Below are positions 1 through 61,029 of a DNA stretch of 64,000 bases, in pieces. How positions within the stretch are numbered: position 1 is the stretch's first letter; each line of letters opens with the position of its first letter. Source of the stretch: Ardenticatenales bacterium (GTDB lineage Bacteria; Chloroflexota; Anaerolineae; Promineifilales; Promineifilaceae). Made by a program: the position numbers and the translations under genes. The notes below the pieces were generated by a model that was given only the letters and a program-made list of their open reading frames with translations, had not been told where the DNA came from and searched no databases. The stretch is from contig JACKBL010000001.1 in NCBI GenBank assembly GCA_020634515.1, positions 145,268 to 209,267 of the forward strand. The letters run 5' to 3'.

Positions 1-2
1 GC

Positions 3-725
3 GGCAAACGCGCCGTTTGCGCCGGGCCGGGCAACCCCCCGGTCGTCGTGGATGAAACCGCGGATATTGAGCAGGCGGGGCGGGACATCGTCATTGGTGG
101 CTCCTTCGACAACAACATCGTCTGCACCACGGAAAAAGAAACACTCGCCGTGGATGCCATCTGCGACGACCTGATCCAGGCCATGACGCGCCACGGGGCG
201 GTGCGCCTCAATCGCTGGCAGTTTGACCGCCTCTGGCGCGCCGTCATCGTCACGGATCGCGGTCCGGGCAAGTACGCGGACATGAACAAGGCCTTCATTG
301 GCAAGAATGCCGCCGTGCTGCTGGCGGAAATCGGCATCAGCGCCGGCCCCGAAGTGCGCCAGATAGTGGCCGAAGTGGACAAAACCCATCCCGCCGTCTG
401 GTCAGAGCAGATGATGCCCATTATGCCCGTCGTGCGCGTCGCCAACGCGGATGAGGCCATTGATCTGGCCGTGGCCGCCGAACATGGCTTCCGCCACACG
501 GCCGTGATGCACTCGAAGAATCTGGACAACCTCAGCCGCATGGCGCGCGAGATCAATTGCAGCATTTTTGTGAAGAACGGGCCTTGCCTGGCGGGACTGG
601 GGTATGGGGGCGAAGGGTACTGCTCGTTTACGATTGCCAGCCCCACCGGCGAAGGGCTGACGGGGCCGCGCAGTTTTAGCCGCTTGCGCCGCTGTACGCT
701 GGTGGATTCTTTTCGGATCGTCTGA
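3..725 (+). CDS. Acylating aldehyde dehydrogenase of BMC type (PduP/EutE-like), C-terminal part; the 5' end lies upstream of the window
   Basis: Frame is open from the window start. Translation ...GNPPVVVDETADIEQAGRDIVIGGSFDNNIVCTTEKE...MMPIMPVVRVANADEAI...CSIFVKNGPCLAGLGYGGEGYCSFTIASPTGEGLT parallels the C-terminal region of PduP/EutE CoA-acylating aldehyde dehydrogenases. It is followed directly by BMC shell genes. Confidence 0.85.
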   Translation, partial: GKRAVCAGPGNPPVVVDETADIEQAGRDIVIGGSFDNNIVCTTEKETLAVDAICDDLIQAMTRHGAVRLNRWQFDRLWRAVIVTDRGPGKYADMNKAFIGKNAAVLLAEIGISAGPEVRQIVAEVDKTHPAVWSEQMMPIMPVVRVANADEAIDLAVAAEHGFRHTAVMHSKNLDNLSRMAREINCSIFVKNGPCLAGLGYGGEGYCSFTIASPTGEGLTGPRSFSRLRRCTLVDSFRIV

Positions 726-731
726 CGTTTT

Positions 732-1316
732 ATGGATTTTCCCGCCCTGGCTCTTCTGGAGTTTAGTAGTATTGCTGCCGGCATTGCCGCTGGTGATGCG
801 ATGGTCAAACATGCGCCCGTGGCCGCCATCCAGACGGGAACCGTGCAGCCCGGCCATTACCTCGTGCTGGTGACGGGGGATGTGGCTTCCGTGGAGGAGG
901 CAGTGAAGGCAGGGCAAGAAATGGGGCGGGAGACGCTGCGGGACCAGGTGTTTTTGCCCAATGTGCATCCCGACGTGGTGCGGGCGCTGGGTGGGCAACG
1001 CCAGGTGCCGGCAGGGGATGCGTTGGGGATTGTGGAAACGGTGGCGGTAGCGGCGGCGATTGGGGCGGGAGATGCCGGCATCAAAGGCGCCGAAGTTGAC
1101 CTCATTCAAATCCGCCTGGCCGATGGTCTTGGCGGCAAAGGCCTCGTCTTCTTCACCGGCCTCGTCTCCGACGTAGAAGCCGCCGTGGAGATCGCCGCCA
1201 CCGCCGCCCAACCACACCTGCTGCGCCAGGTCGTCATCTCCCAACTCCACCCCGACATGCGCCCCAACGTCCATCTCGGCCGCTTCGGCGGCCATTTCGA
1301 CTGGAACCAGGCCTGA
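732..1316 (+). CDS. BMC shell protein with tandem BMC domains (BMC-T)
   Basis: Two Pfam00936-like BMC domains: ALALLEFSSIAAGIAAGDAMVKHAPV... and ALGIVETVAVAAAIGAGDAGIKGAEV.... It sits 7 nt after the aldehyde dehydrogenase stop. Confidence 0.8.
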   Translation: MDFPALALLEFSSIAAGIAAGDAMVKHAPVAAIQTGTVQPGHYLVLVTGDVASVEEAVKAGQEMGRETLRDQVFLPNVHPDVVRALGGQRQVPAGDALGIVETVAVAAAIGAGDAGIKGAEVDLIQIRLADGLGGKGLVFFTGLVSDVEAAVEIAATAAQPHLLRQVVISQLHPDMRPNVHLGRFGGHFDWNQA

Positions 1317-1318
1317 CT

Positions 1319-1594
1319 ATGCAACTCGCGCGCGTCATTGGAACCGTGGTCGCCACGCAGCAGTACGACGGGCTGCGCGGCATCAAATTCCTCATCGTTC
1401 AACCCCTCAACAAACAGCGCCAGCCCACGGGCGAGCCGGTGGTGGCCGCCGACGCCACCGCCCAGGCCGGCCCCGACGAACTTGTCTTTATCGTCGGCAG
1501 CCGCGAAGCCGCCCAGGCCCTGCCCATCACCTTCGTCCCCGTGGACCACGCCATCGTGGGCATCGTGGACGATGTCATGTTGGCGCAACGGTAG
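1319..1594 (+). CDS. BMC vertex protein (BMC-P, EutN/CcmL/PduN family)
   Basis: 91 aa. MQLARVIGTVVATQQYDG..KFLIVQPL is the typical EutN/CcmL N-terminus. It follows BMC-T with a 2-nt gap. Confidence 0.85.
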   Translation: MQLARVIGTVVATQQYDGLRGIKFLIVQPLNKQRQPTGEPVVAADATAQAGPDELVFIVGSREAAQALPITFVPVDHAIVGIVDDVMLAQR

Positions 1595-1624
1595 GGGGCG
1601 GAAGGCGGAAACCAGTTTTCAGAT

Positions 1625-1760
1625 TGGTTCATTCTCCCGGAATGGTAATACTAAAGCTCTCTGGAGATTGGACCAATTCCACGTGCTCAATGGCCATTTT
1701 CACCGGAAAAAATTGGTCCAATCTGGCTTAGCAATTACCGGGAATGAACCAATCTTCGGG
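1625..1760. repeat. Family A dispersed repeat (CCAGATTGGACCAATT core, two inverted copies)
   Basis: ctctggagattggaccaattcc ... aaaattggtccaatctggcttagc. The same ~45-110 bp element recurs at 5768, 13436, 33905, 39790 and 57885. Its core ATTGGaCCAAT is itself a 5-1-5 palindrome. Confidence 0.6.
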
Positions 1761-1768
1761 GAAAAGCG

Positions 1769-2896
1769 ATGTACCAACCCGCCTTGTTTGAAGATTTCGC
1801 GCCGGATATACCTACCGAGGGTATCAAGTATGCTGGATCGAAATTGAAACTCATCCCACATATTCTGCAACTTGCCAGGCAGGTTGAAGCCAGAACCTTA
1901 CTAGATGCGTTTTCAGGAACAACACGTGTTTCGCAGGCATTCGCAAAACTTGGGTACCAGGTTGTTTGCAATGACATCGCTGTCTGGTCCGAAATGTTTG
2001 GCTATGCCTACTTATGCAGCAAAAAAAAGCCCGAGGATTACCAGCCGTTGATTGATCATTTGAATGCGGTGGCTCCCATTGATGGATGGTTTACACAGCA
2101 CTATGGGGGTTTTGCGAATGGCGGGCGTGCTTTGCAGCAAGACGGGCTGAAGAAACCCTGGCAAATTCATAATACACGGAAACTCGATGGTATTCGACAA
2201 GAAATAGAGGCGCTTAACCTTGATGTTATAGACAAAGCAGTTGCACTTTCCAGCTTGATGTTGGCGCTAGATCAGGTGGACAATACGCTCGGGCATTTTG
2301 TATCCTATCTCCGGGATTGGTCTCCGCGTTCGTATAACAACTTGCTGCTCAAAGTGCCGGCAATTTTCTCAACGCCTTGCGAACACCAAGTCTTTCGCAA
2401 AGATGTATTCGAGTTGCTGCCGTATATTGCCGTGGATATTGCCTATCTTGACCCACCCTATGGTTCAAATAATGACAAAATGCCTCCTTCACGGGTGCGT
2501 TACGCTTCGTATTACCATATTTGGACAAGTGTATGTCTGTTTGATGAGCCGGAATTGTTCGGAAAAGCGAAGCGGCGGAAAGACTCCTCTGACAAAGTTT
2601 CTGCGTCTATCTTCGAGGAATTCCGTCAGGACGAGCAAGGAAAATACATTGCGGTCAGCGCAATCGAAAGACTCATTCGTCATATCCAGGCACGCTGGAT
2701 AATCCTGTCGTATAGTTCGGGAGGACGGGCTACTGCTGAAGAGCTTAATAATGTCATTTCCCGTAATGGCAAACTGCTTCAAGTCCTGGAAATTGATTAC
2801 AAAAGCAACGTCATGACCGGTATGAAATGGACACATGAGTGGCTACGAGATATTGAAACCCCTAACCGCGAGTTTTTGTTCCTCATAGAAAAATAG
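1769..2896 (+). CDS. N6-adenine DNA methyltransferase, Dam/D12 class (alpha-type), in a low-GC islet
   Basis: 375 aa. N-terminal IKYAGSKLKLIP and LLDAFSGTTRVSQAF (motif I variant), then the YLDPPYGSNND DPPY motif, in the order typical of Dam/M.EcoRV-like MTases. Local GC is about 45% against about 62% for the window. Confidence 0.85.
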   Translation: MYQPALFEDFAPDIPTEGIKYAGSKLKLIPHILQLARQVEARTLLDAFSGTTRVSQAFAKLGYQVVCNDIAVWSEMFGYAYLCSKKKPEDYQPLIDHLNAVAPIDGWFTQHYGGFANGGRALQQDGLKKPWQIHNTRKLDGIRQEIEALNLDVIDKAVALSSLMLALDQVDNTLGHFVSYLRDWSPRSYNNLLLKVPAIFSTPCEHQVFRKDVFELLPYIAVDIAYLDPPYGSNNDKMPPSRVRYASYYHIWTSVCLFDEPELFGKAKRRKDSSDKVSASIFEEFRQDEQGKYIAVSAIERLIRHIQARWIILSYSSGGRATAEELNNVISRNGKLLQVLEIDYKSNVMTGMKWTHEWLRDIETPNREFLFLIEK

Positions 2897-3034
2897 CCAT
2901 TCCTCCCACATTTTGAATAATGTTGCGCGGCGAGTATTTGAATCCAATGGGGGTTAAATATGAGTAGAGTTGGAAAGGAGACGAAGAAATATAGTGAGCA
3001 GCCACCACAATCCATATAAGGACCTCGAGTCTGG

Positions 3035-3138
3035 CGAAATCCACATATGGTGATCGGAGTCGAGGCTTTAGCCGGGTCAAACCCCATATGTGGGCCGGCT
3101 GAAGCCTCCACTCCCAAAAACGCCAGAGTCCAGTAAGG
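3035..3138. repeat. Family C MITE-like element (~100 bp, CTGGCG...CGCCAG termini)
   Basis: ctggcgaaatccacatatggtgatcggagtcgaggctttagccgggtcaaaccccatatgtgggccggctgaagcctccactcccaaaaacgccag. Near-identical copies occur at 46313-46412 (inverted) and 62950-63068. The internal inverted repeat is ggagtcgaggctttagccgg/ccggctgaagcctccactcc. Confidence 0.7.
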
Positions 3139-3599
3139 ACTTCACTAACCGCCTTAAATTGTTGATTAGCAAGCACCCCGATCTCATCGTAACGACCCTC
3201 AGTAACATCTTTACAATGCGTTTCATAGGCAACAAAACGCACGGCGATTTACATGTTGGAAAAGAGTTATATCGGGCAAAATCACAAGAAGAGGACGTGA
3301 CATTTTCAACGAACTTACAGAAGCCAAGTTTCCGCTTAGTAACCGCCCGTGTAACTACTAACGGTTATTTGGTCAAATCTGCGCTTTAATTGTGTTCATC
3401 TCCTCAATCAGGCACGAAGTGTTAACGGGTTACGGAAGGAAATCATCTTTCAATTGAAGTGTACTACTATCATGTCAAGGGTATTTTGATGGGAAACCAT
3501 GGGTCAATTCGCTGAATTGACCGGACAAGACAGCGTCTTGTCCTACGGCGCGTTTCCATCGTTTTATGCTTGACGGCACACTACTTTGAGTGGAGAAGA

Positions 3600-3866
3600 A
3601 TGTACATTGGCGAAGTGACAGGCACGGTGGTGGCGACGATTAAGCATGAGGCCTTTTTTGGGCGCAAGCTGTTACTGGTGGACCGCCTGGGGCTGGATGG
3701 ACAGCCCACGGGGGAGTATGATATTTGCGTGGATGTGGTGCAGGCGGGGGTGGGGGATCGCGTTTTGGTGCTGGATGAGGGGAATGGCGCGCGCCAGATT
3801 TTGGGGCGCAAGGTTGCGCCCGTGCGCGCCGTGATCGTGGGGGTGGTGGACGCGGTTGATCTGTAG
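3600..3866 (+). CDS. BMC vertex protein (BMC-P, EutN/CcmL/PduN family), second copy
   Basis: MYIGEVTGTVVATIKHEAFFGRKLLLVDRL...VRAVIVGVVDAVDL. ATG at 3600 is preceded by GGAGAAG. The longer track ORF from 3570 lacks an RBS. Confidence 0.8.
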   Translation: MYIGEVTGTVVATIKHEAFFGRKLLLVDRLGLDGQPTGEYDICVDVVQAGVGDRVLVLDEGNGARQILGRKVAPVRAVIVGVVDAVDL

Positions 3867-3941
3867 GCGGGAAAAACCGGAAAAACCGGGTTTTTTGAAA
3901 CCGGGAAAAACCGGGTTTTTTGGAAAAACCCGGTTTTTGGG
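3867..3941. terminator. Bidirectional terminator-like palindromic cluster (AAAAACCGGGTTTTT / AAAAACCCGGTTTTT units)
   Basis: Three mutually complementary units lie between convergent genes (BMC-P ends 3866, mutase ends 3942). A related pair occurs at 55905-56000. Confidence 0.6.
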
Positions 3942-5594
3942 TTACTGATTGGGCCGGTATTCTCCCCACAGGTCGCGTAGGGTGTGGCAGATTTCGCCCA
4001 GGGTGACGTTGTTTTCCACGCAGGCGAGGAAGTGGGGCATCAGGTTTTGGTCGGATTCGGCGGCGGCGCGCAGGTCGGCGCGGAGGGCGGTGACGCGCTC
4101 CTGGTCGCGGCTGGCGCGCAACTGGGCCAGACGCGCCCGCTGTTCGGCTTCCACGGCGGGGTCGATGCGCAGGATTTGTGGCGTGTGCGTTTCCGCTTCC
4201 ACGAATTCATTGACGCCGACGACGATTTCTTGCCGGCATTCCATATCCCGCTGAAACTGATAAGCCGCGTCTTCGATTTCGTGATGGGCGTAGCCGGACT
4301 CAATCGCCGTTAGCATCCCTCCCATCTCGTCAATGTCGCGCAAATACGCCGCCGCCCGATTCTCCAACTCATCCGTGAGATATTCAATGAAATAAGAACC
4401 GGCCAGTGGGTCCACCGTGTCGGCGGCGCCGCTTTCGTTGGCGATGATCTGCTGCGTGCGCAGGGCCACGCGCACCGCCTGCTCCGTGGGCAACCCCAGG
4501 GCCTCATCCATGCTGTTGGTGTGCAGGCTTTGCGTGCCGCCCAGAACGGCGGCCAGCGCCTGCGTGGTGACGCGGACGATGTTGTTTTCCGGCTGCTGCG
4601 CCGTGAGCGTGCTGCCGGCCGTTTGCGTGTGGAAGCGTAACTGCCAGCTTTTGGGATTTTTGGCCCCAAAGCGGTGGCGCATGATTTTGGCCCAGAGGCG
4701 GCGGGCGGCGCGGAACTTGGCGACTTCCTCCAGGAAGTTGTTGTGGACGTTGAAGAAGAAGGAAATCTGGTCGGCGAAGTCATCCACATCCAGGCCGGCA
4801 TCGAGGGCGGCCTGCACGTAGGCGATGCCGTCGCCGAGGGTGAAGGCGACCTCTTGCGCGGCGGTGCTGCCGGCTTCGCGGATGTGGTAGCCGGAGACGG
4901 AAATGGTGTTCCAGCGGGGGACTTCGCGGGCGCAGTAGTCGAAGATGTCGGTGATCAGGCGCATGGAGGGGCGCGGGGGGAAGATGTAGGTTCCGCGCGC
5001 CAGGTACTCCTTGAGGATGTCGTTTTGGATGGTGCCGCGTAGTTTGGTGAAGGGGACGCCTTGTTGCCGCGCCACGGCCAGGACCATGGCCAGGAGAATG
5101 CCGGCAGGCGCGTTAATCGTCATGCTAATGCTCACCCTGTCCAGGGGAATGCCGTCCAGCAGCGTACACATGTCCTGCAAGCTGGAAATGCTCACGCCCA
5201 CTTTGCCCACTTCCCCCATGGCCATGGGGTCGTCGGCGTCGTAGCCGATTTGCGTGGGCAGGTCGAAAGCGACGGAGAGGCCCATCTGGCCGCGGCTGAG
5301 GAGGTATTTGTAGCGTTCGTTGGATTCGGCGGCGGTGCCGAAGCCGGCATACTGGCGCATGGTCCAGAATCGCCCGCGGTACATGGTGGGTTGGACGCCG
5401 CGGGTGAAGGGGTATTCACCGGGAAAGCCAAGTTTGTCGGCGTAGTCGGGGTCGGGGTCGGGGGGGAGGTAAAGGCGGTTGACGGAAATGCCGGCACGTG
5501 TCTCAAACGACTCTTTCCGCTCAGGGAAACGCCGTAACACCGGCTGCAAAGTTTCCTGCTCCCACTGCTGTTTCTGCTCTTCTAACGTCATCAT
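3942..5594 (-). CDS. Methylmalonyl-CoA mutase, catalytic (N-terminal/large) subunit without B12-binding domain
   Basis: Long match to the MCM catalytic domain, e.g. [61 protein letters not shown]. Start taken at MMTLEEQ (ATG 5594) with an AAGGA RBS. The track ORF extends to 5732. Confidence 0.9.
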
Positions 5595-5767
5595 CTTATC
5601 CTTCAGGTGCGTTGGCGCCGTGGCGCGCCCGGCGCGAAGAACGCACGGCGCAAGAATTATCGAGGCTATTGTAGTAGAGAGTGGGAAAATGAGGCAACGC
5701 CAAATGCCACGCCCCCGCCTGACAAACGTCACGCACCGGGAATAAGTTCAGTCCCAATGGAAAGTAA

Positions 5768-5832
5768 CCCTAACCGCCAGGTCAAATTGGTCCAATCTCC
5801 AGAGCGCGTTAGTAGTTACAAGTAACCGCTGC
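5768..5832. repeat. Family A repeat (half copy)
   Basis: aaattggtccaatctccagagcgcgttagtagttacaagtaaccgctgcc. Confidence 0.5.
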
Positions 5833-5859
5833 CATGCCGTGTACTCTAATCCTCTCAAA

Positions 5860-5880
5860 TGTCATGGGAAAATCATGACA
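5860..5880. promoter_or_regulatory. Perfect 7-7-7 palindrome TGTCATG-N7-CATGACA upstream of the cytochrome gene (candidate operator)
   Basis: tgtcatgggaaaatcatgaca lies about 130 nt upstream of the 6012 start, in a divergent intergenic region. Confidence 0.35.
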
Positions 5881-6011
5881 TCCGTCAGTTGCACAGCCAT
5901 TCCTCATCCTTTACGGTGCGAGAATATGGGAAATGTGCTTTCCACCGTTGTCCCCCCGTCAAGTTATTTCTCCTGCTCGTTTGAACCGGGCGCTAGCTGG
6001 GAGGTCCCCTC

Positions 6012-8831
6012 ATGAGTGCGAAGAAAGCCTTTGTCTTCTTGTTGTTGTTACTCGGCCTGACTGCCACGGCTGTGACCTATGCCTGGGAGCCGGTTCCCGT
6101 AAGCGAAGATCCCCTGGTTCGTATGCCAGGCACGCAGCCGGAACAGAACGTGTATCTGCCAAATTCAGACCAATGCTACAATTGTCATGGTGATTACGAT
6201 CCGGTCGTCGAACCGTGGCGCAATTGGTCAGGTTCGATGATGGCGCAAGCCTTGCGCGACTTTTTGTTTTGGCCTGCTACCACCGTCGCGGCGCAAGACG
6301 CCGTGTGGGCTGTGGGCGGACCTAATGCCACGGACATTTGCCTGCGCTGCCACACGCCAATTGGATGGCTGGGCGGACGGTCCGATCCTACTAACGGGTC
6401 GCTGTTGAGCGACGCGGATTTCGATGCTGTGCAATGCACATTTTGCCATCGGATGTACGATCCGTTTTTTGATACGACTTATGCCGGCACTCGTGAAGGC
6501 GATGACTGGTCCGGCTATTGGGATGAAACCGACGCCAGCGACATGCCATCCAGCGCCGCGGCATGGGAAACCTATCTCCAGGATAGCGTGGAAGCAGCCC
6601 ACATCACCCTGTTCAACGGACAATCATTTTTTGTCAACAACCAGCCGCCGGCCGGCTACATCGAAAATGGCGGCGGACAGTACTTTGTTAGCGATCAGAA
6701 CTTGAGACGCGCCTCGTTTGCTGATGCCGAGGCCAATCATGGTATGCTTTACAGTCGTTATCACAAGAGCAAGTACTTTTGCAGCACCTGCCACGATGTC
6801 TCCAATCCAGTTCTGCTCAACCTCAACGCCAACCCACAAGAGCCGTTGCCTAGCGAAACAGTGCCCGCTTACAGCTACTATCACGTGGAACGCACCTTCT
6901 CTGAGTTCATGCTTTCCGCTTATGGGCAGGCGGGGGGCGCGCCAGGTGTGGGGCCGTTTGCGCCGGAAATCTTCGATACGTCGCATCCCGGCGATGTCAT
7001 TGCCTCTTGTCAGGATTGCCACCTGCGGGACATGCCCGGCAAGGGGGCTGACAAGAATGGCGCTGTCTTACGCCCGGTAGAAAGTGTTGAGCACCCACAG
7101 AGTGGCGTTCCTCAGCACGACCTGACGGGTGGCAATATGTGGGTGCCAGCCATATTGGCCAGCACAGTGCCCGGTTCACCCAATTACGACAGCGTCAATG
7201 ATGCTTTGCTCAATCAGGGGCCAGAATTACTGACGCTTGATCTGAATGCCGGCCTGGGGTTAGACCCGGATGCATTGTTGGCCGGTGTAGCGCGCGCGCA
7301 GCAAAATCTGCACGATGCTGCCGGCATCACGGACTTCCTTTATGAGCCGGGGAGTGGCGAGGTTTCATTCCGGCTGCAAAATCAAACCGGCCACAAACTG
7401 TTGTCCGGCTTTCCCGAAGGTCGCCGCATGTTCGTGAACATCAGGGCCTATGTCGGCGAAGCGTTGCTTTGGGAAGTCAACCCCTATGATGAAACCGTGG
7501 GGACATTGAAGGGTTTACCGCCGGCCTATTCACCGGATAGCCCGCCCCTGGCGGAACATGAGTTTTACGTAGATGCGTTGGTCTACGAAGTTCATCTGTC
7601 CAGTGACCTTACGGGGGAAGAAAAGACGTTCCACGTGGCTTTGAGTACACACCGCGACAAAGATAATCGTATTCCGCCGCGCGGCTTTCTGATTGATGAG
7701 GCTGCCGCGCGGCTGGTGGATCCGGCATGGATGGGTTCCTCGGCGCCGGATTACTTCACGGCGGCGGAATATGCGGGTGGATATGACGCCGTTACCTTGA
7801 GTGACTATGGCATCGCCTTGCCTGGAGCAGACCGGGTGGAGGTTTACCTCTACTACCAGACAACCAGCCGCGAGTACGTGACGTTCTTGCGCGACGAGAT
7901 CAACGGGACGGGTAATCTAACGTTGTGGAACCCGCCTCCTTCTGGGGAACCGGAAGCATACATTGCGCAGACAGACCCCTTCTTCGCACAATTGGCTGCC
8001 TGGGGAGACACGGTCTGGCAATTATGGGAGCATAATCGGGACTTGCCGGGCGCCGCGCCTGTGTTCATGGTGGGTGCGTCCTGGCAACTCGTTCAAGATG
8101 ATGGCTATGCCGTGCAATATGATGGTTGGCGCGGCGGCGAAGACGCGGACGCATTTGGTGGCGGTTTCCGCGCGGCGGATGCTGCCGGTCAATGGATTGT
8201 CTATCGCGCAACGCAACCATCCAACTACGTGACTTTGCTCGTCTGCCGCGGGCCTGATCAAGGATTGGCCTACCCGCTGATTGACGGGCAGTTCCAGGGG
8301 ATATTGGATCTGTATGCGCCAACTGCCGGTTGTCAGGAGGCGGTGACTTACACCGGATTAACGCCAACGCCGCACACGGTTGTGGTGCTGGCTTCTGGCC
8401 TGGGCAATCCCCATGCGACGGGCAGTGAGGTGCGTCTGGATGGCTTTGGGAGCGGGGGGGGAGTGGTAGATGACGACAGTCCGGCTGTGATCTACGGTTC
8501 CTGGAGCGGCATGGAATTGCCTCAGGCGAGCGGCGGTACGCTGCGGATGGCCACGCGGGCGAATGCCGGCATTACATTTAATGTCACCGGCGATCGCGTC
8601 GTCTGGTTATCGGCGTTTTGTCCTGTTTGCGGCGAAGCAGCGCTGTACGTGGATGACGTCTACCAGGCGACGGTAGATACATACAGTCCAACCTGGCTAT
8701 TCCAGCAGTCGGTTGTCGTCGCGGACTTGCCGCCGGGCGCACACAGTATCGAAATTCGGGCGACGGGCACCAAGAATCCTGCTTCCGCCGGCACGCTCGT
8801 CGTCTTTGACGGTTTCGCGTCGGTCCCCTAA
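6012..8831 (+). CDS. Secreted multi-haem c-type cytochrome (5 CXXCH) with a large C-terminal domain of unknown function
   Basis: Signal peptide MSAKKAFVFLLLLLGLTATAVTYA. Haem-binding motifs CYNCH, CLRCH, CTFCH, CSTCH and CQDCH all fall in the first ~360 aa. The remaining ~580 aa have no recognisable motifs. Confidence 0.8.
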   Translation: MSAKKAFVFLLLLLGLTATAVTYAWEPVPVSEDPLVRMPGTQPEQNVYLPNSDQCYNCHGDYDPVVEPWRNWSGSMMAQALRDFLFWPATTVAAQDAVWAVGGPNATDICLRCHTPIGWLGGRSDPTNGSLLSDADFDAVQCTFCHRMYDPFFDTTYAGTREGDDWSGYWDETDASDMPSSAAAWETYLQDSVEAAHITLFNGQSFFVNNQPPAGYIENGGGQYFVSDQNLRRASFADAEANHGMLYSRYHKSKYFCSTCHDVSNPVLLNLNANPQEPLPSETVPAYSYYHVERTFSEFMLSAYGQAGGAPGVGPFAPEIFDTSHPGDVIASCQDCHLRDMPGKGADKNGAVLRPVESVEHPQSGVPQHDLTGGNMWVPAILASTVPGSPNYDSVNDALLNQGPELLTLDLNAGLGLDPDALLAGVARAQQNLHDAAGITDFLYEPGSGEVSFRLQNQTGHKLLSGFPEGRRMFVNIRAYVGEALLWEVNPYDETVGTLKGLPPAYSPDSPPLAEHEFYVDALVYEVHLSSDLTGEEKTFHVALSTHRDKDNRIPPRGFLIDEAAARLVDPAWMGSSAPDYFTAAEYAGGYDAVTLSDYGIALPGADRVEVYLYYQTTSREYVTFLRDEINGTGNLTLWNPPPSGEPEAYIAQTDPFFAQLAAWGDTVWQLWEHNRDLPGAAPVFMVGASWQLVQDDGYAVQYDGWRGGEDADAFGGGFRAADAAGQWIVYRATQPSNYVTLLVCRGPDQGLAYPLIDGQFQGILDLYAPTAGCQEAVTYTGLTPTPHTVVVLASGLGNPHATGSEVRLDGFGSGGGVVDDDSPAVIYGSWSGMELPQASGGTLRMATRANAGITFNVTGDRVVWLSAFCPVCGEAALYVDDVYQATVDTYSPTWLFQQSVVVADLPPGAHSIEIRATGTKNPASAGTLVVFDGFASVP

Positions 8832-8836
8832 CGCGC

Positions 8837-10738
8837 TCAAGGCCCCTGGTTATTGTCGAACGCCGCGGTCAATTCCAACCAGCGTTCGAGAGCGGTTTCT
8901 AGTTCCGCTTCGATGCCGGCATATTTCCCGGCCAGTTGCGTCAATTGCTGATAGTCACTGCCGCTGGCGTTGATGGCCGCTTGCAGCCGCGCTTGCTCCG
9001 CTTCCAGGGTGGCGATGCGTTCTTCCAGGGCGGCCAGTTCCTGTCTTTCCTTCCACGTGGGGCCGGTTTTGCCGGCATTTTCCGTCCTGGAGCGCGTCGG
9101 TGTTTCCCCCCTGACGGGCGCAGGTTCCGGGGGGAGCGTGCCGGCAGCGCGGGCGCGTTGATACGCGGCAAAAGGAGCGGGATAGCGCGTACTCATCCCC
9201 CCATCGGCGAACGTTGCCAGGAAATCCACCGTGCGATCCAGGAAATAACGATCGTGGCTGACCACAATGAGGCAGCCCTGGAAGTTGTCCAAAAACTGCT
9301 CCAGCACTTGCAACGTCTGAATGTCCAGATCGTTCGTTGGTTCGTCCAGCAGCAGGACATTGGGACGCCGAGCCAACACGCCTAACAGATACAGCCGCCG
9401 CTTTTCACCGCCGCTGAGGGCATCAATGATGGCCCGCTGCTGCGGACGGGGAAAGAGGAACCAGTCCAGCATTTGCGCCGCTTCCACGCGCTCCCCATCG
9501 TTGGTCTGGATAAGGGGGGCTACTTCGTTGATGTAATCAATGACGCGGAGATCACGGGGGAGGTGGCGGCTGTGCTGATCGTAGTAGCCGATACGCACCG
9601 TTTCGCCCCAGTCCAGCACGCCGCCGTCCGGGGCGATTTCGCCCGCGAGGATGTCCAGGAAGGTGCTTTTGCCGGCACCATTCGGCCCAATCAAGCCAAT
9701 GCGATCCCCAGGGACCAACTCAAAATCCACATCCGCGAACAGGCACAAATCCGCAAACGATTTGCGTAGGCCGTGGGCTTGCAGCACCTTTTTGCCCAGC
9801 CGTCGCCCACCCAAAGCCATCGCCACACGCTGTTCGCCCGCGTCGTAGTCGAGGCGTTGCAGCTCCTCGATACGCTGCTTGCGCGCTTTCTGCTTGGTGC
9901 TGCGCGCCTGCGCCCCCCGCCGCAGCCATTCCAATTCGCGCCGCAACTGCGCCTGCCGCTTCTCTTCCTGGGTGGTGAGCGTCTCGTGCCGCAGTTGGTG
10001 TAGTTCCAGGTATCTGCTGTAGTTGCCCGGATAGTTGATGAGTTCGCGGCGGTCGATCTCCACGATGCGGTTGGCGACGCGGTCGAGGAAGTAGCGGTCG
10101 TGCGTGACCATGAGGAGGGCGGCGTTCATGTCGCGTAGGAAGCCTTCCAGCCAGTCAATGGTGTCCGCGTCGATGTGGTTGGTGGGTTCGTCCAGGAGCA
10201 GCAGGTCGCCGGGATCAATGAGGACCTGTGCCAGGGCCACGCGCTTGCGCTGGCCGCCGCTGAGCGTGCCCAGGCGGGCGTCGAATTCGGTGATGCCCAG
10301 GCGGGTGAGGATGGCCTTGGCGCTGGCTTCCGCTTCCCAGCCGCGCAGGCGGGTCATTTCGTCGCCGAGGTGGGCCAGGCGGGATTGCAGGTCGGCGTCC
10401 AGGGGGGTTTGCTGGAGGGCGCGGCTGGCCTGCTCGTATTGGCGCAGGACGCGAATGTGGGGGATGTCGCTGGCGAAGAGGGTTTCCAGGACGGTGAGGC
10501 TGTCGTCGAGGGGTGGGTCCTGGGACAGGTAGCGCACGCGCACCCCGCCCCAGACGGTGATGCTACCCTGGTTGGGGGATTCAATGCCGGCAATCAAGCG
10601 CAGCAGTGTCGTCTTTCCACTTCCATTGATGCCAATCAACCCAATCCGGTCACCGCTGTTGATGAGCAGGCCGGCCTGTTGCAGCAGCACTCGTTCGCTG
10701 TATTGGTGTGTGATTTCGGTGAGCGTGACCAGATTCAC
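8837..10738 (-). CDS. ABC-F family ATPase (duplicated ABC ATPase, Uup/YbiT-like) with C-terminal coiled coil
   Basis: Two Walker A sites (GINGSGKTT, GPNGAGKST), ABC signatures LSGGQRKR and LSGGEKRR, and the inter-domain linker typical of ABC-F proteins. Confidence 0.9.
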   Translation of the reverse strand: MNLVTLTEITHQYSERVLLQQAGLLINSGDRIGLIGINGSGKTTLLRLIAGIESPNQGSITVWGGVRVRYLSQDPPLDDSLTVLETLFASDIPHIRVLRQYEQASRALQQTPLDADLQSRLAHLGDEMTRLRGWEAEASAKAILTRLGITEFDARLGTLSGGQRKRVALAQVLIDPGDLLLLDEPTNHIDADTIDWLEGFLRDMNAALLMVTHDRYFLDRVANRIVEIDRRELINYPGNYSRYLELHQLRHETLTTQEEKRQAQLRRELEWLRRGAQARSTKQKARKQRIEELQRLDYDAGEQRVAMALGGRRLGKKVLQAHGLRKSFADLCLFADVDFELVPGDRIGLIGPNGAGKSTFLDILAGEIAPDGGVLDWGETVRIGYYDQHSRHLPRDLRVIDYINEVAPLIQTNDGERVEAAQMLDWFLFPRPQQRAIIDALSGGEKRRLYLLGVLARRPNVLLLDEPTNDLDIQTLQVLEQFLDNFQGCLIVVSHDRYFLDRTVDFLATFADGGMSTRYPAPFAAYQRARAAGTLPPEPAPVRGETPTRSRTENAGKTGPTWKERQELAALEERIATLEAEQARLQAAINASGSDYQQLTQLAGKYAGIEAELETALERWLELTAAFDNNQGP

Positions 10739-10744: not shown

Positions 10745-10960
10745 TAACGACCTCGTGAAACCTTCCCGGAAGCTCGTGGCTCAAGCCACTTCGCGTTAAA
10801 ACAGCTTCCGGGAAGGTGGTTGTGAAACCTTCCCGGAAGCTCGGACTCAAGCCATTTCGCGTTAAAACAGCTTCCGGGAAGGTGGTTGTGAAACCTTCCC
10901 GGAAGCTCGGACTCAAGCCATTTCGCGTTAAAGCAGCTTCCGGGAAGGTGGTGGCGCGTG
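10745..10960. repeat. Family B hairpin repeat, 3 tandem units of ~72 bp (CTTCCCGGAAGC ... GCTTCCGGGAAGG)
   Basis: gaaaccttcccggaagctcg..actcaagcca.ttcgcgttaaaacagcttccgggaaggtggttgt repeated three times. Each unit is an imperfect hairpin. Confidence 0.7.
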
Positions 10961-10961
10961 T

Positions 10962-12149
10962 TTACGGCAACTGCCCCGTAACAAAGCGGCGGGCGGTTTC
11001 GGCGAGGACGGCAGCACCAACGGGAATGACGCTCTCGTCGATGTCGAAAACGTCCGTATGGTGATGGCGGACGACTCCATCCGGTGTGGCTGCGCCGAGC
11101 ATGAACATGGCGCCTTGGGCGGCCTGGGCCATATAGGCGAAATCTTCCGCGCCCATGCCAAATTCCATGTCCGTTACGTCGTCTTCGCCGACCAGATCAA
11201 GGGCTGTCTGGCGCATCCAGTCGTTGACTTGAGGCGCGTTGTAGAGGGCGGGGTAGCCTTTGTTAATTTTTAACTCGTAGGCCCCCCCCATGAGGGTGCT
11301 GAGGCGGAGGGCGTTTTCTACTTCCGCCCAGAGCTTTTGGCGCACATCGTCGTGGTGGGAGCGGATGGTGCCTTCGAGCAGGACTTCGTTGGGGATGACG
11401 TTGGTGGTGGAGCCGCCTTCGATGTGGCCGAGGCTGACGACGCAGGGGCGCAGGGGGTTGATGAGGCGGGAGGGGATGGCGTAGAGTGCCGGCAAAATCG
11501 ACCCCAACATATGAATCGGATCAGAACCATTGTGCGGGTAAGCGCCATGCCCTCCATCGCCGCGCACCCAGGCGCGGAACGAATCAACCGCGGCCAGGCT
11601 GTACTCATCGTGGAAGAAACAGAGGCCGGCAGGCCGATCCGAGGCCACATGCAGGGCAATCACCGCGTCCAATCCGTCCAGGGCATCATCGGCGATCATG
11701 GCTGTGGCTCCGCTGACGCCATCCTCGTCGAACGCTTCTTCGGACGGTTGAAAGAGAAAGCGCACCGTGCCCCGCCACTTATCCATCTCCTCCGCCTGGC
11801 TTTGTTTGAGCAAATGGGCCACGCCCAGCAAAATGGCCGTGTGGGCGTCGTGGCCGCAGGCGTGCATCACGCCGGCATTTTGGGACGAATAGGGTCGGCC
11901 CGTTTTTTCCAAAATGGGCAGGGCATCCATGTCCGCGCGAATGCCAATAACAGGCCCGTCGCCGCTGCCGATTTCCGCGACCACGCCAGTGCGGCCCACA
12001 CCGGTGCGCGGCTGCAAACCAATTTCGCGCAGGGTGTCCGCCACCAGGGCGGCGGTGCGGAACTCCTGAAAGCTCAGCTCAGGGTGTTGATGAATGTCGC
12101 GGCGAATACGGATCAGTTCGCCGGCTATGCGTTGTGCTTTCTCTAGCAT
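10962..12149 (-). CDS. M20D-family amidohydrolase (N-acyl-amino acid amidohydrolase / hippurate hydrolase-like)
   Basis: DIHQHPELSFQEFRTAALVADTL...MHACGHDAHTAILLGVAHLL signature. Start at MLEKAQRI (ATG 12149, GGAGA RBS). The track ORF extends to 12299. Confidence 0.85.
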   Translation of the reverse strand: MLEKAQRIAGELIRIRRDIHQHPELSFQEFRTAALVADTLREIGLQPRTGVGRTGVVAEIGSGDGPVIGIRADMDALPILEKTGRPYSSQNAGVMHACGHDAHTAILLGVAHLLKQSQAEEMDKWRGTVRFLFQPSEEAFDEDGVSGATAMIADDALDGLDAVIALHVASDRPAGLCFFHDEYSLAAVDSFRAWVRGDGGHGAYPHNGSDPIHMLGSILPALYAIPSRLINPLRPCVVSLGHIEGGSTTNVIPNEVLLEGTIRSHHDDVRQKLWAEVENALRLSTLMGGAYELKINKGYPALYNAPQVNDWMRQTALDLVGEDDVTDMEFGMGAEDFAYMAQAAQGAMFMLGAATPDGVVRHHHTDVFDIDESVIPVGAAVLAETARRFVTGQLP

Positions 12150-13435: not shown

Positions 13436-13482
13436 CAGCAACTGCTAAGCCAGATTGGACCAATTTTCAGAGAGCGGCAGTA
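13436..13482. repeat. Family A repeat (compact copy)
   Basis: caactgctaagccagattggaccaattttcagagagcggcagtagttg. Confidence 0.5.
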
Positions 13483-13542
13483 GTTGCCTGCTTCGGACCT
13501 TCCTGGAAGCCTTGTCCGCTTCCAGAAAGATGAATATCGGCA

Positions 13543-19519: not shown

Positions 19520-19539
19520 AAGGACGTCTCCTATGAAAA

Positions 19540-19607
19540 TAATCTTCCCGGAAGCTCATGCACGGATGATAGCCCTGGGGAGCAGCTTCCGGGAAGATGT
19601 TGTCATT
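19540..19607. repeat. Family B hairpin repeat (single unit)
   Basis: aatcttcccggaagctcatgcacggatgatagccctggggagcagcttccgggaagatg. Confidence 0.55.
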
Positions 19608-19710
19608 GATGGTGGTGCGCCGCCGCGCATGAAGTCTCCTGGCCGGTGGCCGTGCGCGCTTGCCTGGATTATAGCGCAAGCAGGCGCGGACGCGAGCAGG
19701 CGAGACTTTC

Positions 19711-31097: not shown

Positions 31098-32903
31098 CTA
31101 GCCCGCTTCGTGCCCGTTAGTTTCCGGGGCGAGCGACTTGCCCGCGGCCTGCTGCTGAATGAACATGCCCAACAAGGCATCCATCATCCCCGCGCCACCG
31201 CTGCCGCCACTGACGGCCACATCCGGCACAATCCGCACCTGGCGGTCGCCGACCACCTGCATCAGTTGCAACAAAGTGTACCCCTGCGCGCCCAGCGCCT
31301 GCACGCCGGCCTGGTATGCCTGCGCCCGCGCATTACCGATAGTGCGCACCGCTTCCGCTTCGCCCAGCGCCTGCAAGCGGGTGGCTTCTGCCTCACCCTG
31401 CGCCTGCTTGATGCGTGCCTGGCTTTGCAGATCGGCAATCGTCACGCCCTGCTCCGAACTCACCATGTCCCGCTGAATGTCGGCCATGGCCGTTTCCCGC
31501 ACCAGCGACTGCCGCTGCGCCTGCGCCTCGCGCTGCACTTCATACGTCTTGCGCTGCTCCTCGGCGATCTTGCGGTCCGTCTGCGTCAACATCAACTCCG
31601 CCGGCGGCGTGATGTCGCCGATCAGGGTGTCAATGGCTTGCACATCATAGGCGCGGATCGCGTCCCGAATGTGCTTGGCCGCCTCTACCTGCCGCTGGCT
31701 GCGGGCGCTGAGGAAGTCCAGCACCGTGTACTCCTGCGCAGAGTTGCGGAAGTAGTTGCCCACAATGGGCTGCAAAACGTGATCGACCAGGTTCTGCACG
31801 GAACCCACGCGGGAGATGACCTTGGGCGCATCCGGCGCGCCAATGTGGATGATCTGGGCCACATCCAGGTTGAAGGCGAAGCCGTCCTTGGAGCGTACCG
31901 TAATCGGCGATAGCTTGGCGTCATAGGCGTGCGCCTCCGTGCGCGAGGCCCAGTTGAGGACGATGTTGGTGGTGGGGACCAGTTCCACACGCATGACGCG
32001 CGTGTTGAGCGGGTGCTTGCCCGGATAGAGGGGCGTGATCCAGACGCCCTTGTGCCCCGGATCGACCAGATTGCCATGCTTGAAGGATTCGCCGCTGACG
32101 TCCAGGTGTTCCTTGCCCACGAAGGAGATGACGATGCCCACGTGACCGATGGGGATTTCCGTCATGGGGGCCTGCTCTACTTGCACAAACCAGGGGTTCA
32201 AGTTCCAGGAGCCGGAGAGGAGTACCTGTTCCTGCAAGCCACGCCGCCCGCCTTTGTCGAGGAAGGCTTGCGCGTCCTGGAAGTTGTTGTGGTCGTAGAT
32301 GATGGGGCCGGCGATCTCGCCTTCTTCGATGGGTTCGCCGTCCATGGTGGTGACGATGCCCACGCGGTCGGGATGCACTTCGTAGACGAGAAGCTGCCGC
32401 GGGTCCATACCGTAGGCTTCGGCGGTGGCGGCGGTGATGACGGTGAAGAGGGCTGTGTTGATGCGGTAGGTTCCGGCGGTGAGAAGGCCTAATTGTCGCC
32501 CTTTTTCGCCGCCGTTCTGCAAAAAGGCGCGGGCGTCCTGGAAGTTGCCACAGGGCACATTTTTGCCCAAAATGCGCTGCGGGGGAATGGCTGCGCCGTC
32601 GGCAGCGATGACCAGACCAATTTGCCCGGCGGGGACGATGATGACGGGCTGTTTGACGACGCGGAACATCCAGGGGAAGTAGCCGAAGTGCCAGCCAGGG
32701 GGGAGGGTGTTCGCCTGGTAGCCGGCTTCCCGATTCAGGGCGACGAGCTGGCCTGCCGGCAAACCACGGCCAAATTTACGAATGACGATGCCGACTTCGT
32801 CTTCTTTGACGACGACCAGACCGACGATCTGTTTCACGAAGACGAGCGCGGCGAGTAGGAGGACGAATAGAAAAGCGAGCCAGGGGAGCAGAGAGCTAAA
32901 CAT
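31098..32903 (-). CDS. Flotillin-like SPFH/Band-7 domain membrane protein
   Basis: N-terminal TM helix, SPFH domain, and a long C-terminal EA/Q-rich coiled-coil region (…AEEQRKTYEVQREAQAQRQ…GEAEATRLQALGEAEAV…). Confidence 0.85.
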   Translation of the reverse strand: MFSSLLPWLAFLFVLLLAALVFVKQIVGLVVVKEDEVGIVIRKFGRGLPAGQLVALNREAGYQANTLPPGWHFGYFPWMFRVVKQPVIIVPAGQIGLVIAADGAAIPPQRILGKNVPCGNFQDARAFLQNGGEKGRQLGLLTAGTYRINTALFTVITAATAEAYGMDPRQLLVYEVHPDRVGIVTTMDGEPIEEGEIAGPIIYDHNNFQDAQAFLDKGGRRGLQEQVLLSGSWNLNPWFVQVEQAPMTEIPIGHVGIVISFVGKEHLDVSGESFKHGNLVDPGHKGVWITPLYPGKHPLNTRVMRVELVPTTNIVLNWASRTEAHAYDAKLSPITVRSKDGFAFNLDVAQIIHIGAPDAPKVISRVGSVQNLVDHVLQPIVGNYFRNSAQEYTVLDFLSARSQRQVEAAKHIRDAIRAYDVQAIDTLIGDITPPAELMLTQTDRKIAEEQRKTYEVQREAQAQRQSLVRETAMADIQRDMVSSEQGVTIADLQSQARIKQAQGEAEATRLQALGEAEAVRTIGNARAQAYQAGVQALGAQGYTLLQLMQVVGDRQVRIVPDVAVSGGSGGAGMMDALLGMFIQQQAAGKSLAPETNGHEAG

Positions 32904-33213
32904 GGGTTTTCCTTGCCAAAGAGAGATGACGCGGCAAAGCGCGGCGCACCCGGGGATGGATGCCGTGCCGGCATTTCACGCCAACAAAGCAGCATACGAC
33001 AAATTGCGAGTAAGGATGGGGGAACAGACAGCCAACCGGCTTATGGGGGGGAATAAATGGGGAACATGACCAACCACCTCCTGGCGCGACAACAACGATC
33101 ACCGACTGCCGCCAATCAGTCATTTCAGGCGATCTGACCAGAAAATACGCGGAAATATTACAAAATTTCCGCTCTCGTGTCAATATATGGGGGGAGCGTG
33201 GTAGCGGGCGTCC

Positions 33214-33894
33214 CTATGTTGAGATGGTGTGTGGCTTGCTCTCTCTTACTTCCCACAAATCATCATGCTTATCTGAGAACCAAAGCTCGACGTACTTCAA
33301 ACGCAGTTCGGTTGGTTCATCATTTCCGGTTACTGTTGAATACGAGTAGTGAATAACCGGTAGATTGAAGTCTGTTCTACAATGCCTAACCTGGTGATGT
33401 AACCTTGCCACATCTCCCATAGTGGTTGTGTTGGGGCAAATGCAGATGAACATACCTGTATACTTCAATTCAGCAAGCAACAATCTGGCAAAGTCATGAT
33501 AGCGTGGCTGTACTTCGTTAAACTGGCGTATTTGGTGTCCATCACACGCGACGGATAAAGGGGGTCCAAAGAAAATGGCATCATCCTCAATGAAGTTACG
33601 CAACAGGCCTTTATCCAGGGCATCTCCACAATAACACGCAATCCCCTGTTTCCGATTTGCGGCCACAATACTTGCTTCGATGTCCAGTCCTCGATAAGTC
33701 TGCATATTCAGATATTTTGAGTACGCTTGAAACTGCCTTGTGCAATCACCACAGCAGATTTCCGCAATTGTATTTACGGAGGGAACCAATTCCCTCAATA
33801 GAGAAACCCTTTGAAGGATCGTCTGGGAATTTGTACGAGCGAAAGATTTTCTATTTAGATCAGGCGTTTGATACATCCCATTCAACTCACTCAT
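33214..33894 (-). CDS. Hypothetical protein in a low-GC islet, possibly a class I SAM-methyltransferase-like fold
   Basis: Local GC about 46%. Weak MTase-like motif order: EICCGDC (motif I-like), YRGLDIEASIVAANRK, CYCGDALD, AIFFGPPLS (DPPY-like position). A Family A repeat sits immediately upstream of its start. Confidence 0.5.
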   Translation of the reverse strand: MSELNGMYQTPDLNRKSFARTNSQTILQRVSLLRELVPSVNTIAEICCGDCTRQFQAYSKYLNMQTYRGLDIEASIVAANRKQGIACYCGDALDKGLLRNFIEDDAIFFGPPLSVACDGHQIRQFNEVQPRYHDFARLLLAELKYTGMFICICPNTTTMGDVARLHHQVRHCRTDFNLPVIHYSYSTVTGNDEPTELRLKYVELWFSDKHDDLWEVRESKPHTIST

Positions 33895-33904
33895 GAGGCA
33901 GTAT

Positions 33905-33992
33905 TTTATCTTGTTGAGTAACTGCTAGGCCAGATTGGACCAATTTCACCAGAGAAAATTGGTCCAATCTCCAGAGAGCGTTAGTAGTTCCG
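33905..33992. repeat. Family A repeat (full copy, two inverted ATTGGaCCAAT cores)
   Basis: gtaactgctaggccagattggaccaatttcaccagagaaaattggtccaatctccagagagcgttagtagttcc. Confidence 0.6.
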
Positions 33993-34054
33993 CGAAACGA
34001 AGAGTTCTACCCCGCTCGCATAGTTCACTTCAGTCTACCCGGAACGTTTTCTCG

Positions 34055-34612
34055 TTATGTGCTCAATTGCTTCATGGGGATGATCAATAACGCCTGAATG
34101 TAATCCGCCATCTCCTCTTTCGAGCAAATCATCCCCGATTCCAACCACCAGCGCATGAGGCTGATCATCGTCGAGGCGAAGTGATGCGCCATCAACTCAT
34201 CTGGAATACGAGGGCAATGAAATGTTTGCCGACCATCTTCCAGGCCAATGGCTACCGCGGCACTCAGCAGATGATCGGACGCGGGGCTGTTCAGGAGCGT
34301 CATGAACAATTCCGCATGTGTTTCAATGTATGTTAAGACGGTCATCGTGTTTTGTTGTGTTGCTCTTTCATCGGATGGCGGCAGCAGCAACGACTGCACC
34401 CTACCGAGGATGTCGTCAACAAGCGACTGCAACAGCGCCTCTCTATTCTCATAATGGCGAAAAAACGTCTTGTACCCAACCTGTGCTTCACGAGTAATAT
34501 CACGAATGGTGATCTCATGATAAGGTTGACTATTCGCCAGCGCGATCAGCGATTCTTGTAGAAGGCGGCGTGTTCGTTGTACGCGTAGATCATTTTCATT
34601 CATCACTTTCAT
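34055..34612 (-). CDS. TetR-family transcriptional regulator
   Basis: N-terminal HTH ...SLIALANSQPYHEITIRDITREAQVGYKTFFRHYENRE.... Start at MKVMNEN (ATG 34612, AGAGAG RBS). Confidence 0.85.
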   Translation of the reverse strand: MKVMNENDLRVQRTRRLLQESLIALANSQPYHEITIRDITREAQVGYKTFFRHYENREALLQSLVDDILGRVQSLLLPPSDERATQQNTMTVLTYIETHAELFMTLLNSPASDHLLSAAVAIGLEDGRQTFHCPRIPDELMAHHFASTMISLMRWWLESGMICSKEEMADYIQALLIIPMKQLST

Positions 34613-34725
34613 TATACACTCTCTTGACCCCAAATGGTACTTATGATACATTGTGGGCTACAATTAAGACCCATCAAAGGTCTTAAGGAATCCCATAGGT
34701 CACAAAAATCAAGAGGAAAAGAAGG

Positions 34726-39664: not shown

Positions 39665-39789
39665 ATAACACCATCTTCTGGTAAGAGGTCTGACCAGTTG
39701 GTGGCAGTATAAACGATTATGGTGTTTTTGTCTAGGGGAAAAACCTTCCAGGAAGCTACTTGAACTTTAAGAAATAGCGTAACTACGCG

Positions 39790-39835
39790 CTTTTTGAAAA
39801 TTGGTCCAATCTGGCTTAGCCGTTATGAAATAACT
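39790..39835. repeat. Family A repeat (half copy)
   Basis: gaaaattggtccaatctggcttagccgttatgaaataacttcgg. Confidence 0.5.
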
Positions 39836-43800: not shown

Positions 43801-43814
43801 AATTTGCTCATGTA

Positions 43815-43905: not shown

Positions 43906-43915
43906 GTGAACCGTT

Positions 43916-61024: not shown

Positions 61025-61029
61025 GGAAT

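Follow-up and report, generated by a model that had tools for sequence, protein, structure and literature searches.

We analyzed a 64-kb stretch of the genome of an Ardenticatenales bacterium (Chloroflexota; contig JACKBL010000001.1), referred to in its full length as the window, in which a low-GC island of 2005 bp (1595-3599, no strand assigned) lies between two genes for bacterial microcompartment (BMC) shell proteins. The island carries an intact gene for an N6-adenine DNA methyltransferase, designated M (1769-2896, + strand), and, after a spacer of 97 nt, what is left of a gene for a Type II restriction endonuclease, designated R, in two pieces on the same strand (2994-3023 and 3141-3340). 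Between these two pieces lies a miniature inverted-repeat transposable element (MITE; 3024-3133, no strand assigned).

The last host gene before the island is BMC-P1 (1319-1594, + strand), which encodes a EutN/CcmL pentamer (PF03319, E = 4.2e-26). It is preceded by BMC-T (732-1316, + strand), which encodes a tandem-domain BMC shell protein matching PF00936 in two stretches (E = 7.5e-35), and, to the left of BMC-T, by an aldehyde dehydrogenase gene fragment that comprises its 3′ part. The first host gene after the island is BMC-P2 (3600-3866, + strand), an intact gene for a second EutN/CcmL pentamer (PF03319, E = 1.2e-24), beyond which lies a convergent methylmalonyl-CoA mutase gene. A preliminary description of this DNA had placed an aldehyde dehydrogenase, a BMC-T, and a BMC-P to the left and a BMC-P paralogue resuming at 3600, with an interrupting segment of ~2 kb and ~45% GC between them, and both points agree with our Pfam matches and composition analysis. 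The GC content of the island was 0.462, versus 0.640 in positions 1-1594 and 0.604 in positions 3600-6000, making the island the lowest-GC 2-kb stretch of the window. The GC content at third codon positions (GC3) was 0.48 in M, versus 0.73-0.80 in neighbouring host genes.

We compared the locus with 80 loci from GTDB species representatives encoding a BMC-T relative, 45 of which, the closest, were listed. The closest were metagenome-assembled genomes (MAGs) of Ardenticatenaceae and Candidatus Promineifilaceae, with BMC-T 67-72% and aldehyde dehydrogenase 86-88% identical; BMC-T orthologues in related genomes spanned 59-72% identity, and those of BMC-P1 and BMC-P2 in the closest genomes 72-88% and 74-84%, respectively. 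Wherever both pentamer genes were found in these 45 loci, they were neighbours, and in the closest genomes they adjoined directly; a relative of M or R occurred in none of the 45. In ten related genomes, the spacer between the pentamer genes was 0-54 nt, versus 2005 nt in the window, and because it was often only 0-7 nt, BMC-P1 and BMC-P2 are likely to be translationally coupled. The comparison with related genomes proposed in the preliminary description thus supported an insertion.

The structure of the island was identical in independent metagenome assemblies from several samples, including one 167-kb contig, at 99.1-99.97% identity to the window, and these contigs shared the junctions, the 703-nt stretch from M to BMC-P2, and the MITE. 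Neither a pre-insertion allele nor an allele with intact R was found in the species, as all contigs with an exact BMC-T, BMC-P1, or BMC-P2 protein carried the island structure; the only more divergent contig (L017, 93.6% nucleotide identity, sample SRR776449) ended before the junction. We weighed whether the arrangement could be ancestral or an assembly chimera, since repeats flank or lie within the segment and one contig (L189) breaks at the MITE, but the adjacency of BMC-P1 and BMC-P2 in ten related genomes, the deviant GC3 of M, and the recurrence of the same junctions in independent assemblies refute this explanation and leave it practically no chance. These findings demonstrate that the island was inserted between BMC-P1 and BMC-P2, very probably after horizontal acquisition. 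With regard to the hallmarks of genomic islands, the segment deviates in base composition and is missing at the corresponding position in relatives. In contrast, we found no integrase-like open reading frame (ORF) and no phage genes near the island, no tRNA gene in a scan of positions 1-10000, and no direct repeats flanking the island in a self-comparison of the window.

The breaking contig, L189 (1895-2695; ERZ28655585 scaffold_20528), tracks the window to the right end of the MITE at 3133, beyond which its sequence is unrelated. Most likely this contig was chimerically assembled through the repeat, and MAGs of this organism call for caution on that account.

Other BMC loci also contained insertions. 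In an uncultured Ardenticatenaceae genome (L029, CAZPEJ010000129.1), a different, unrelated insertion of ~3.17 kb (3695-6867) occupied the same BMC-P1/BMC-P2 junction and carried small membrane ORFs and, on the minus strand, a 671-aa CHAT/caspase-like protein whose match to Pfam CHAT (E = 2e-4) did not reach the cut-off. At the BMC-T/BMC-P1 junction, we observed insertions of ~5 kb in one locus (L056) and ~1.4 kb in two others (L051 and L053). BMC shell-gene junctions thus appear to tolerate foreign DNA, and that another Ardenticatenaceae genome has a second, unrelated insertion between BMC-P1 and BMC-P2 suggests that this site is permissive. In the window, a tightly coupled BMC shell operon tolerates 2 kb of foreign DNA between its pentamer genes.

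The methyltransferase and the endonuclease pseudogene

M encodes a protein of 375 aa that matched PF02086 (MethyltransfD12) over residues 21-276 at 78.1 bits (cut-off of 22; E = 1.2e-21) and the PADLOC model MTase_II PDLC03342 over model positions 10-381 of 383 (E = 7.9e-164). Motif I (DAFSGTT, residues 46-52) lies N-terminal to motif IV (DPPY, residues 228-231), which is the arrangement of alpha-type enzymes, and all columns that are invariant among 11 diverse homologues, including both motifs, are kept in M. The D12 class and the DPPY motif named in the preliminary description therefore held, but its label Dam-class applies at the Pfam level only, as M scored 14.2 bits against the NCBIfam Dam model TIGR00571, whose cut-off is 114.85. 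PDB sequence searches with M, even by profile, gave no match, including to Dam, DpnM, and T4Dam. Judged by sequence, M is not an orthologue of Dam, the GATC methyltransferase. More than 6,800 homologues of M were found; the top ones were 70-78% identical, with the nearest at 78%, and spanned Chloroflexota, Acidobacteriota, Pseudomonadota, Patescibacteria, and a Methanomethylicaceae archaeon.

Downstream of M, codons 1-10 of R (2994-3023, + strand) begin with a GTG start and read GTGAGCAGCCACCACAATCCATATAAGGAC (MSSHHNPYKD), compared with ATGAGCAGCCACGATCC..., ATGAGCAGCCACGATCCTTACAAAGAT (MSSHDPYKD) at the start of R in two relatives (L115 and L116). The remainder, codons 11-95 (3141-3340, + strand), was detected by tblastn, blastn, nhmmer, and PADLOC. 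A tblastn search of the whole window with full-length R returned a single significant match (3135-3332, + strand; E = 8e-27), and blastn and nhmmer (with --max) aligned R nucleotides 20-137 to 3133-3250 and nucleotides 194-285 to 3250-3340. The same two methods found no other R DNA within 1400-3800, including 3341-3599. The raw ORF at ~3090-3389, a chimera of MITE and endonuclease sequence, matched the PADLOC model REase_II PDLC03568 in two stretches at E = 1.1e-22, and the reconstructed peptide free of the MITE matched it, again in two stretches, at E = 1.7e-27. The claim that only repeat-derived pseudo-ORFs lie downstream of M was therefore wrong; R survives there as a degenerate pseudogene (2994-3340), which the preliminary description had overlooked.

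Four lesions disable R. The first is the MITE, which interrupts codon 10; removing the element and one copy of its target-site duplication in silico restored the R frame (...PYKDFTNRLKLLISKHPDLIVTTLSNIFTMRFIGNKTHGDL). The second is an in-frame deletion of 57 bp at ~3250/3251 that removed residues 47-65, including the invariant E48, and the third, located after HVGKELYRAKSQEEDV, is a 1-nt deletion near 3301 that shifts the frame. The fourth is a truncation, with homology ending at codon 95 (…FPLS) at position 3340, so that the invariant K97, E203, and the C-terminal two-thirds of the protein are gone; 187 codons are missing, and codons 1-95 of 282 remain. The R gene is thus dead. Residues 8-46 of the remnant show one change among ~39 invariant or near-invariant positions, and the nearly consensus state of the retained parts suggests that R was inactivated recently compared with the time over which the cassette family has diverged. 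Inactivation of R nevertheless predates the sampled population. In annotation, 2994-3340 should be entered as an endonuclease pseudogene and M as a solitary methyltransferase.

Pseudogenes ordinarily arise in ways such as MITE insertion and deletion. The 110-nt element in R, which the preliminary description had recognized as a MITE and called Family C, has terminal inverted repeats CTCGAGTCTGGCG and CGCCAGAGTCCAG that match at 11 of 13 positions and is flanked by a perfect 7-bp duplication of its target site, TAAGGAC, at 3017-3023 and 3134-3140. Two further copies are present in the window (~62955-63064 and 46315-46421) with duplications of their own (TCAGGA; CCTTTyAA), and the element is predicted to fold into a hairpin of -56.3 kcal/mol (z = -5.2). 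A non-coding 110-nt unit with inverted ends, a 7-bp target-site duplication, and several genomic copies, three of them in the window, has the properties of a MITE and resembles known cases of gene inactivation by MITEs and insertion sequences.

The cassette in other genomes

In other genomes, R is a 282-aa ORF without a Pfam domain that lies immediately upstream of M on the same strand, as observed in all 11 contexts fetched for three M homologues, and in complete pairs the R stop codon overlaps or abuts the M start codon. In 80 further metagenome loci, R was directly upstream of M in 54, downstream in none, and absent in 26. Two distant members on viral contigs, with R 49-60% identical, also had R followed by M, and none of the 67 complete pairs that we examined outside the window, with R identities as low as 49%, departed from this order. 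The preliminary description had looked for an endonuclease gene only downstream of M, the side on which none of these 67 pairs carries it. The two-gene cassette had a GC content of 47-49% wherever it was found, compared to 55-58% in the surrounding host DNA. A search of a plasmid collection for R gave no match.

Loss of R recurs in this cassette family. R was absent in 20 of the 55 loci with at least 900 nt of upstream sequence, and two loci (L168 and L171) kept only R residues 219-282 beside M. In four others (L149, L156, L161, and L162), a solitary M lies between an orotate phosphoribosyltransferase-like gene upstream and an adenylosuccinate lyase-like gene downstream, a shared housekeeping context that suggests stable solitary copies of M.

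We also observed sequence shared at the ends of the cassettes. Many from unrelated hosts (such as L102, L140, L127, L121, and L143) have the motif GGCCCAAYA directly after the M stop codon, within the first 15 nt, and several share a promoter-like TATAATCATTGTT box ~30 nt upstream of R. The motif and the box may mark the ends of a mobile unit.

Full-length R of relatives matched the PADLOC model REase_II PDLC03568 over its whole length (E = 5e-132), and searches with R of Pfam, NCBIfam, and PDB sequences gave no match. An exhaustive search of 1.84 billion cluster representatives yielded 273 relatives of R. In an alignment of 36 sequences with 27-100% identity, the invariant residues were G44, E48, G68, D80, S95, K97, Q105, T108, N212, Q215, R216, G217, and W219, with E203 near-invariant. 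An AlphaFold2 model of R built from this diverse alignment reached a pLDDT of 93.5 and a pTM of 0.90; a first prediction from a shallow alignment, with at least 78% identity among full-length rows, had a pLDDT of 50 and was discarded. The predicted full-length structure was similar to those of solved restriction endonucleases with a PD-(D/E)XK fold. This model places R as a predicted PD-(D/E)XK-fold endonuclease of the ThaI/NaeI/SwaI/EcoRV structural lineage, with a fold like that of known blunt-cutter-like enzymes, although R shares only 9-12% sequence identity with these structures and has S-x-K in place of (D/E)-x-K. The candidate catalytic signature, identified without superposition on an active site, consists of D80 and S95-L-K97 together with E48 and E203, and E48, D80, and S95-x-K97 are placed as would be expected for an S-x-K variant of the PD-(D/E)XK site.

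Activity of M and the reversed gene order

We consider it very probable that the island is a horizontally acquired, degenerate two-gene Type II restriction-modification (RM) cassette in which R is dead and M persists as an intact, functionally solitary N6-methyladenine (m6A) methyltransferase. Our data show that the segment is inserted, which genes it carries, which lesions R has suffered, and that M is intact. As in orthodox Type II RM systems (PDLC03568 and PDLC03342), both genes in relatives give full-length matches and form a same-strand pair, and the cassette is scattered patchily over phyla with a GC content that does not depend on the host. The copy in the window differs in that R is a pseudogene with codons 1-95 and four lesions and in that M precedes R; it has a methyltransferase of a Type II family and no intact adjacent cognate endonuclease.

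In the mechanism that we propose, the cassette would have entered the normally 0-54-nt spacer between the coupled pentamer genes, where M would use S-adenosylmethionine to methylate adenine at N6 within a specific site and the 282-aa R would cut that site when unmethylated. A host MITE would then have transposed into codon 10 of R, with the deletions, the frameshift, and the truncation also destroying the gene, so that the locus would now work, at most, as a solitary m6A methyltransferase. The decay took the direction that would be expected, since loss of M while R is active is lethal, and loss of R is harmless. Because losing M first would have been lethal while R was active, loss of R rather than of M would be the tolerated route of decay.

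The preliminary description had left open an orphan methyltransferase or an RM system with a decayed endonuclease. The second alternative is borne out by the pseudogene at 2994-3340, and the first, in the sense of a primary orphan acquired alone, for instance from a phage, for anti-restriction or regulation and never partnered here, is refuted and retains hardly any chance. The lack of an intact endonuclease gene and the existence of solitary members of the M family would fit such an origin, but the wreck of the cognate R follows M on the same strand after 97 nt, at an equally low GC content, and no phage genes, integrase, or tRNA are nearby.

Several observations weigh against a decayed cassette with a working solitary M. 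The search for a second copy of R covered 64 kb of the genome, in which M is solitary, with no other R homologue and the adjacent copy a pseudogene. Split or duplicated RM genes exist, and a functional endonuclease encoded elsewhere in the genome could act in trans and keep the RM system active. We regard this as very unlikely, as tblastn of the window with full-length R gives only the remnant, R abuts M in every complete pair elsewhere, and the exact-match contigs recovered for the species show no other copy.

Further points of this kind concern M itself. Across eight assemblies of the population, its nine variable sites comprised 5 non-synonymous and 4 synonymous changes, versus 5 non-synonymous and 20 synonymous in the pooled neighbouring host genes, which hints at some relaxed constraint on M, in numbers too sparse to decide. 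We found no convincing promoter upstream of M and no convincing + strand terminator between BMC-P1 and M, in a scan whose site count was not above that of shuffled sequence, and a hairpin repeat of -30.6 kcal/mol stands between BMC-P1 and M. The M-R spacer (2897-2993, + strand) has one weak sigma-70-like match at 2894-2921 (scan score, 9/12). The absence of a convincing promoter, the stable hairpin repeat between the BMC operon and M, and the polymorphism would all fit a relic of the whole cassette, with M also silent or inactive but decaying more slowly than R and the islet without current function. We find this possible but doubtful. The 375-codon ORF of M, with all family-invariant residues, is intact in all eight independent assemblies, none of which has a frameshift or stop, and the five amino-acid polymorphisms are all conservative (I/V, S/N, L/M), whereas the 350 bp of R have meanwhile collected four lesions, each of them disabling. 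Elsewhere, solitary members of the M family also persist in conserved housekeeping contexts. The ratio of non-synonymous to synonymous substitution rates (dN/dS) of M to its nearest relative (L008) is 0.048, a value averaged over a long history since synonymous sites are saturated. We infer that M is probably still expressed and active, with transcription most plausibly arising by read-through from the co-oriented BMC operon.

The last point against a decayed cassette is the gene order, which is M, 97 nt, and the R remnant here and R then M in all other complete pairs; simple insertion followed by decay does not explain this. Homology to other cassettes starts exactly at the M start codon, and the spacer has no homology to the flanks of other cassettes. 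We found no R 3′ end upstream of M in 1595-1768 with whole R by tblastn, blastn, or nhmmer --max; with a hidden Markov model of 42 distinct R tails, the site upstream of M was not among the 25 best matches in the window, and the 27 nt between the repeat preceding M, Family A, and the M start codon had no detectable similarity to R 3′ ends. Because no R 3′ end was found in 1595-1768, a permuted or tandem origin is without positive support. Histories that fit the reversed order are a head-to-tail tandem (R-M-R-M) or a circular intermediate that later underwent deletions, a permuted fragment that integrated, or an unsampled variant with M before R; given the deep conservation of the R-then-M order, a derived rearrangement is more likely than an old variant. 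It is unlikely, in our judgment, that the unit entered from a circular or head-to-tail tandem intermediate opened inside R and so arrived already disarmed. In that event, the reversed order would be a trace of how the cassette moved, and the host would have gained methylation without facing restriction or post-segregational killing.

Solitary methyltransferases that arise by loss of the endonuclease are like M in being intact without a functional cognate R, and it is established that many orphan methylases derive from decayed RM systems, as Seshasayee et al. 2012 and Oliveira et al. 2014 reportedly found. In contrast to the conserved regulatory orphans Dam and CcrM, M in the window resides in unameliorated foreign DNA with the wreck of R attached and is not of the Dam family. 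Lineage-specific orphan methyltransferases are a recognized category (PMC12707154). Both protein families are already modelled in PADLOC as parts of Type II RM systems, and the origin of orphan methylases by loss of R is well documented. The locus is a well-resolved natural snapshot of the passage from RM system to orphan methylase, in which every lesion in R is readable and M is untouched, and as such a clean but ordinary example that leaves the current understanding of RM biology unchanged; what is mildly curious is that the genes stand in reversed order and that the BMC junction is permissive. Methylomes of activated-sludge Chloroflexota may show an extra m6A motif from this M family.

Host repeats and neighbouring features

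The repeat upstream of M, Family A (1644-1741, + strand), is a dispersed palindromic repeat of the host that ends 27 nt before the M start codon and is predicted to form the -30.6 kcal/mol hairpin mentioned above (z = -2.5). The preliminary description had rightly noted a Family A repeat on the left of the island, and five other copies occur in the window (57887-57975, 33917-33998, 5777-5826, 13437-13494, and 39788-39825). The element has a short form of ~50 nt and a long form of ~90 nt, both with GTAACTACTAAcGC...AATTGGTCCAATCT...GCTTAGCAGTTAC palindromes as their framework. Every copy is intergenic, and the element resembles those of the repetitive extragenic palindromic (REP) or bacterial interspersed mosaic element (BIME) type.

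The copy at 33917-33998 lies in a second low-GC islet (32800-35400, GC content of ~0.476) and ends 22 nt upstream of a 226-aa ORF (33214-33894, minus strand), in the same relative position and orientation as the copy at M. This ORF had no Pfam or PADLOC match, and its CCGDC and FGPPL sequences resemble methyltransferase motifs I and IV; the islet also encodes a TetR regulator (34055-34651) and a CHRD-domain protein (34726-35472). We considered Family A as a promoter cassette, because in two islets a low-GC gene begins 22-27 nt after a copy, and rejected the idea, as the other copies have no consistent relation to gene starts; these remaining copies lie between co-directional genes.

The island tail (3341-3599, no strand assigned) has a GC content of 0.444 and includes the ribosome-binding site of BMC-P2 as well as a hairpin with the sequence GGTCAATTC-gct-GAATTGACC. 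The only ORF of at least 40 aa is a longer reading of BMC-P2 (TTG at 3570) that starts within the last 30 nt, and neither a repeat family nor an RNA family was found in it; an Rfam scan of the islet was empty. A Family D fragment reported earlier within the segment could not be substantiated, as no other part of the window matched 3333-3599 at E ≤ 0.01, and 3481-3511 has a 65% resemblance to part of Family A and nothing more.

Beyond BMC-P2, repeated AAAAACCGGGTTTTT hairpins (3873-3940; -35.5 kcal/mol, z = -3.3) lie between BMC-P2 and the convergent methylmalonyl-CoA mutase gene and probably terminate transcription in both directions; at ~55.9 kb (55915-55992), a motif like this one occurs again. 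Beside the BMC/mutase region, positions 6012-8831 encode a large multihaem cytochrome of 939 aa, in which the haem-binding motif CxxCH occurs several times and which gave weak matches to cytochrome c and of the MtrC/MtrF-like type.

Other repeats were observed farther along the window. A tandem repeat with periods of 29 and 41 nt, GCAGAATTTAAGCGGGAGTGGAGGCTTTAGC(CGGAACGGTT), at 63392-63531 lies ~320 nt from the MITE copy at ~62955-63064 and has the core GGAGGCTTTAGCCGG in common with the MITE. Tandem arrays of 66-67-nt units around the palindrome AGCTTCCGGGAAG occur at 60994-61494 and 10780-10977, with dispersed single copies of the AGCTTCCGGGAAG type at 19528-19610, 43809-43929, and 58878-58928.

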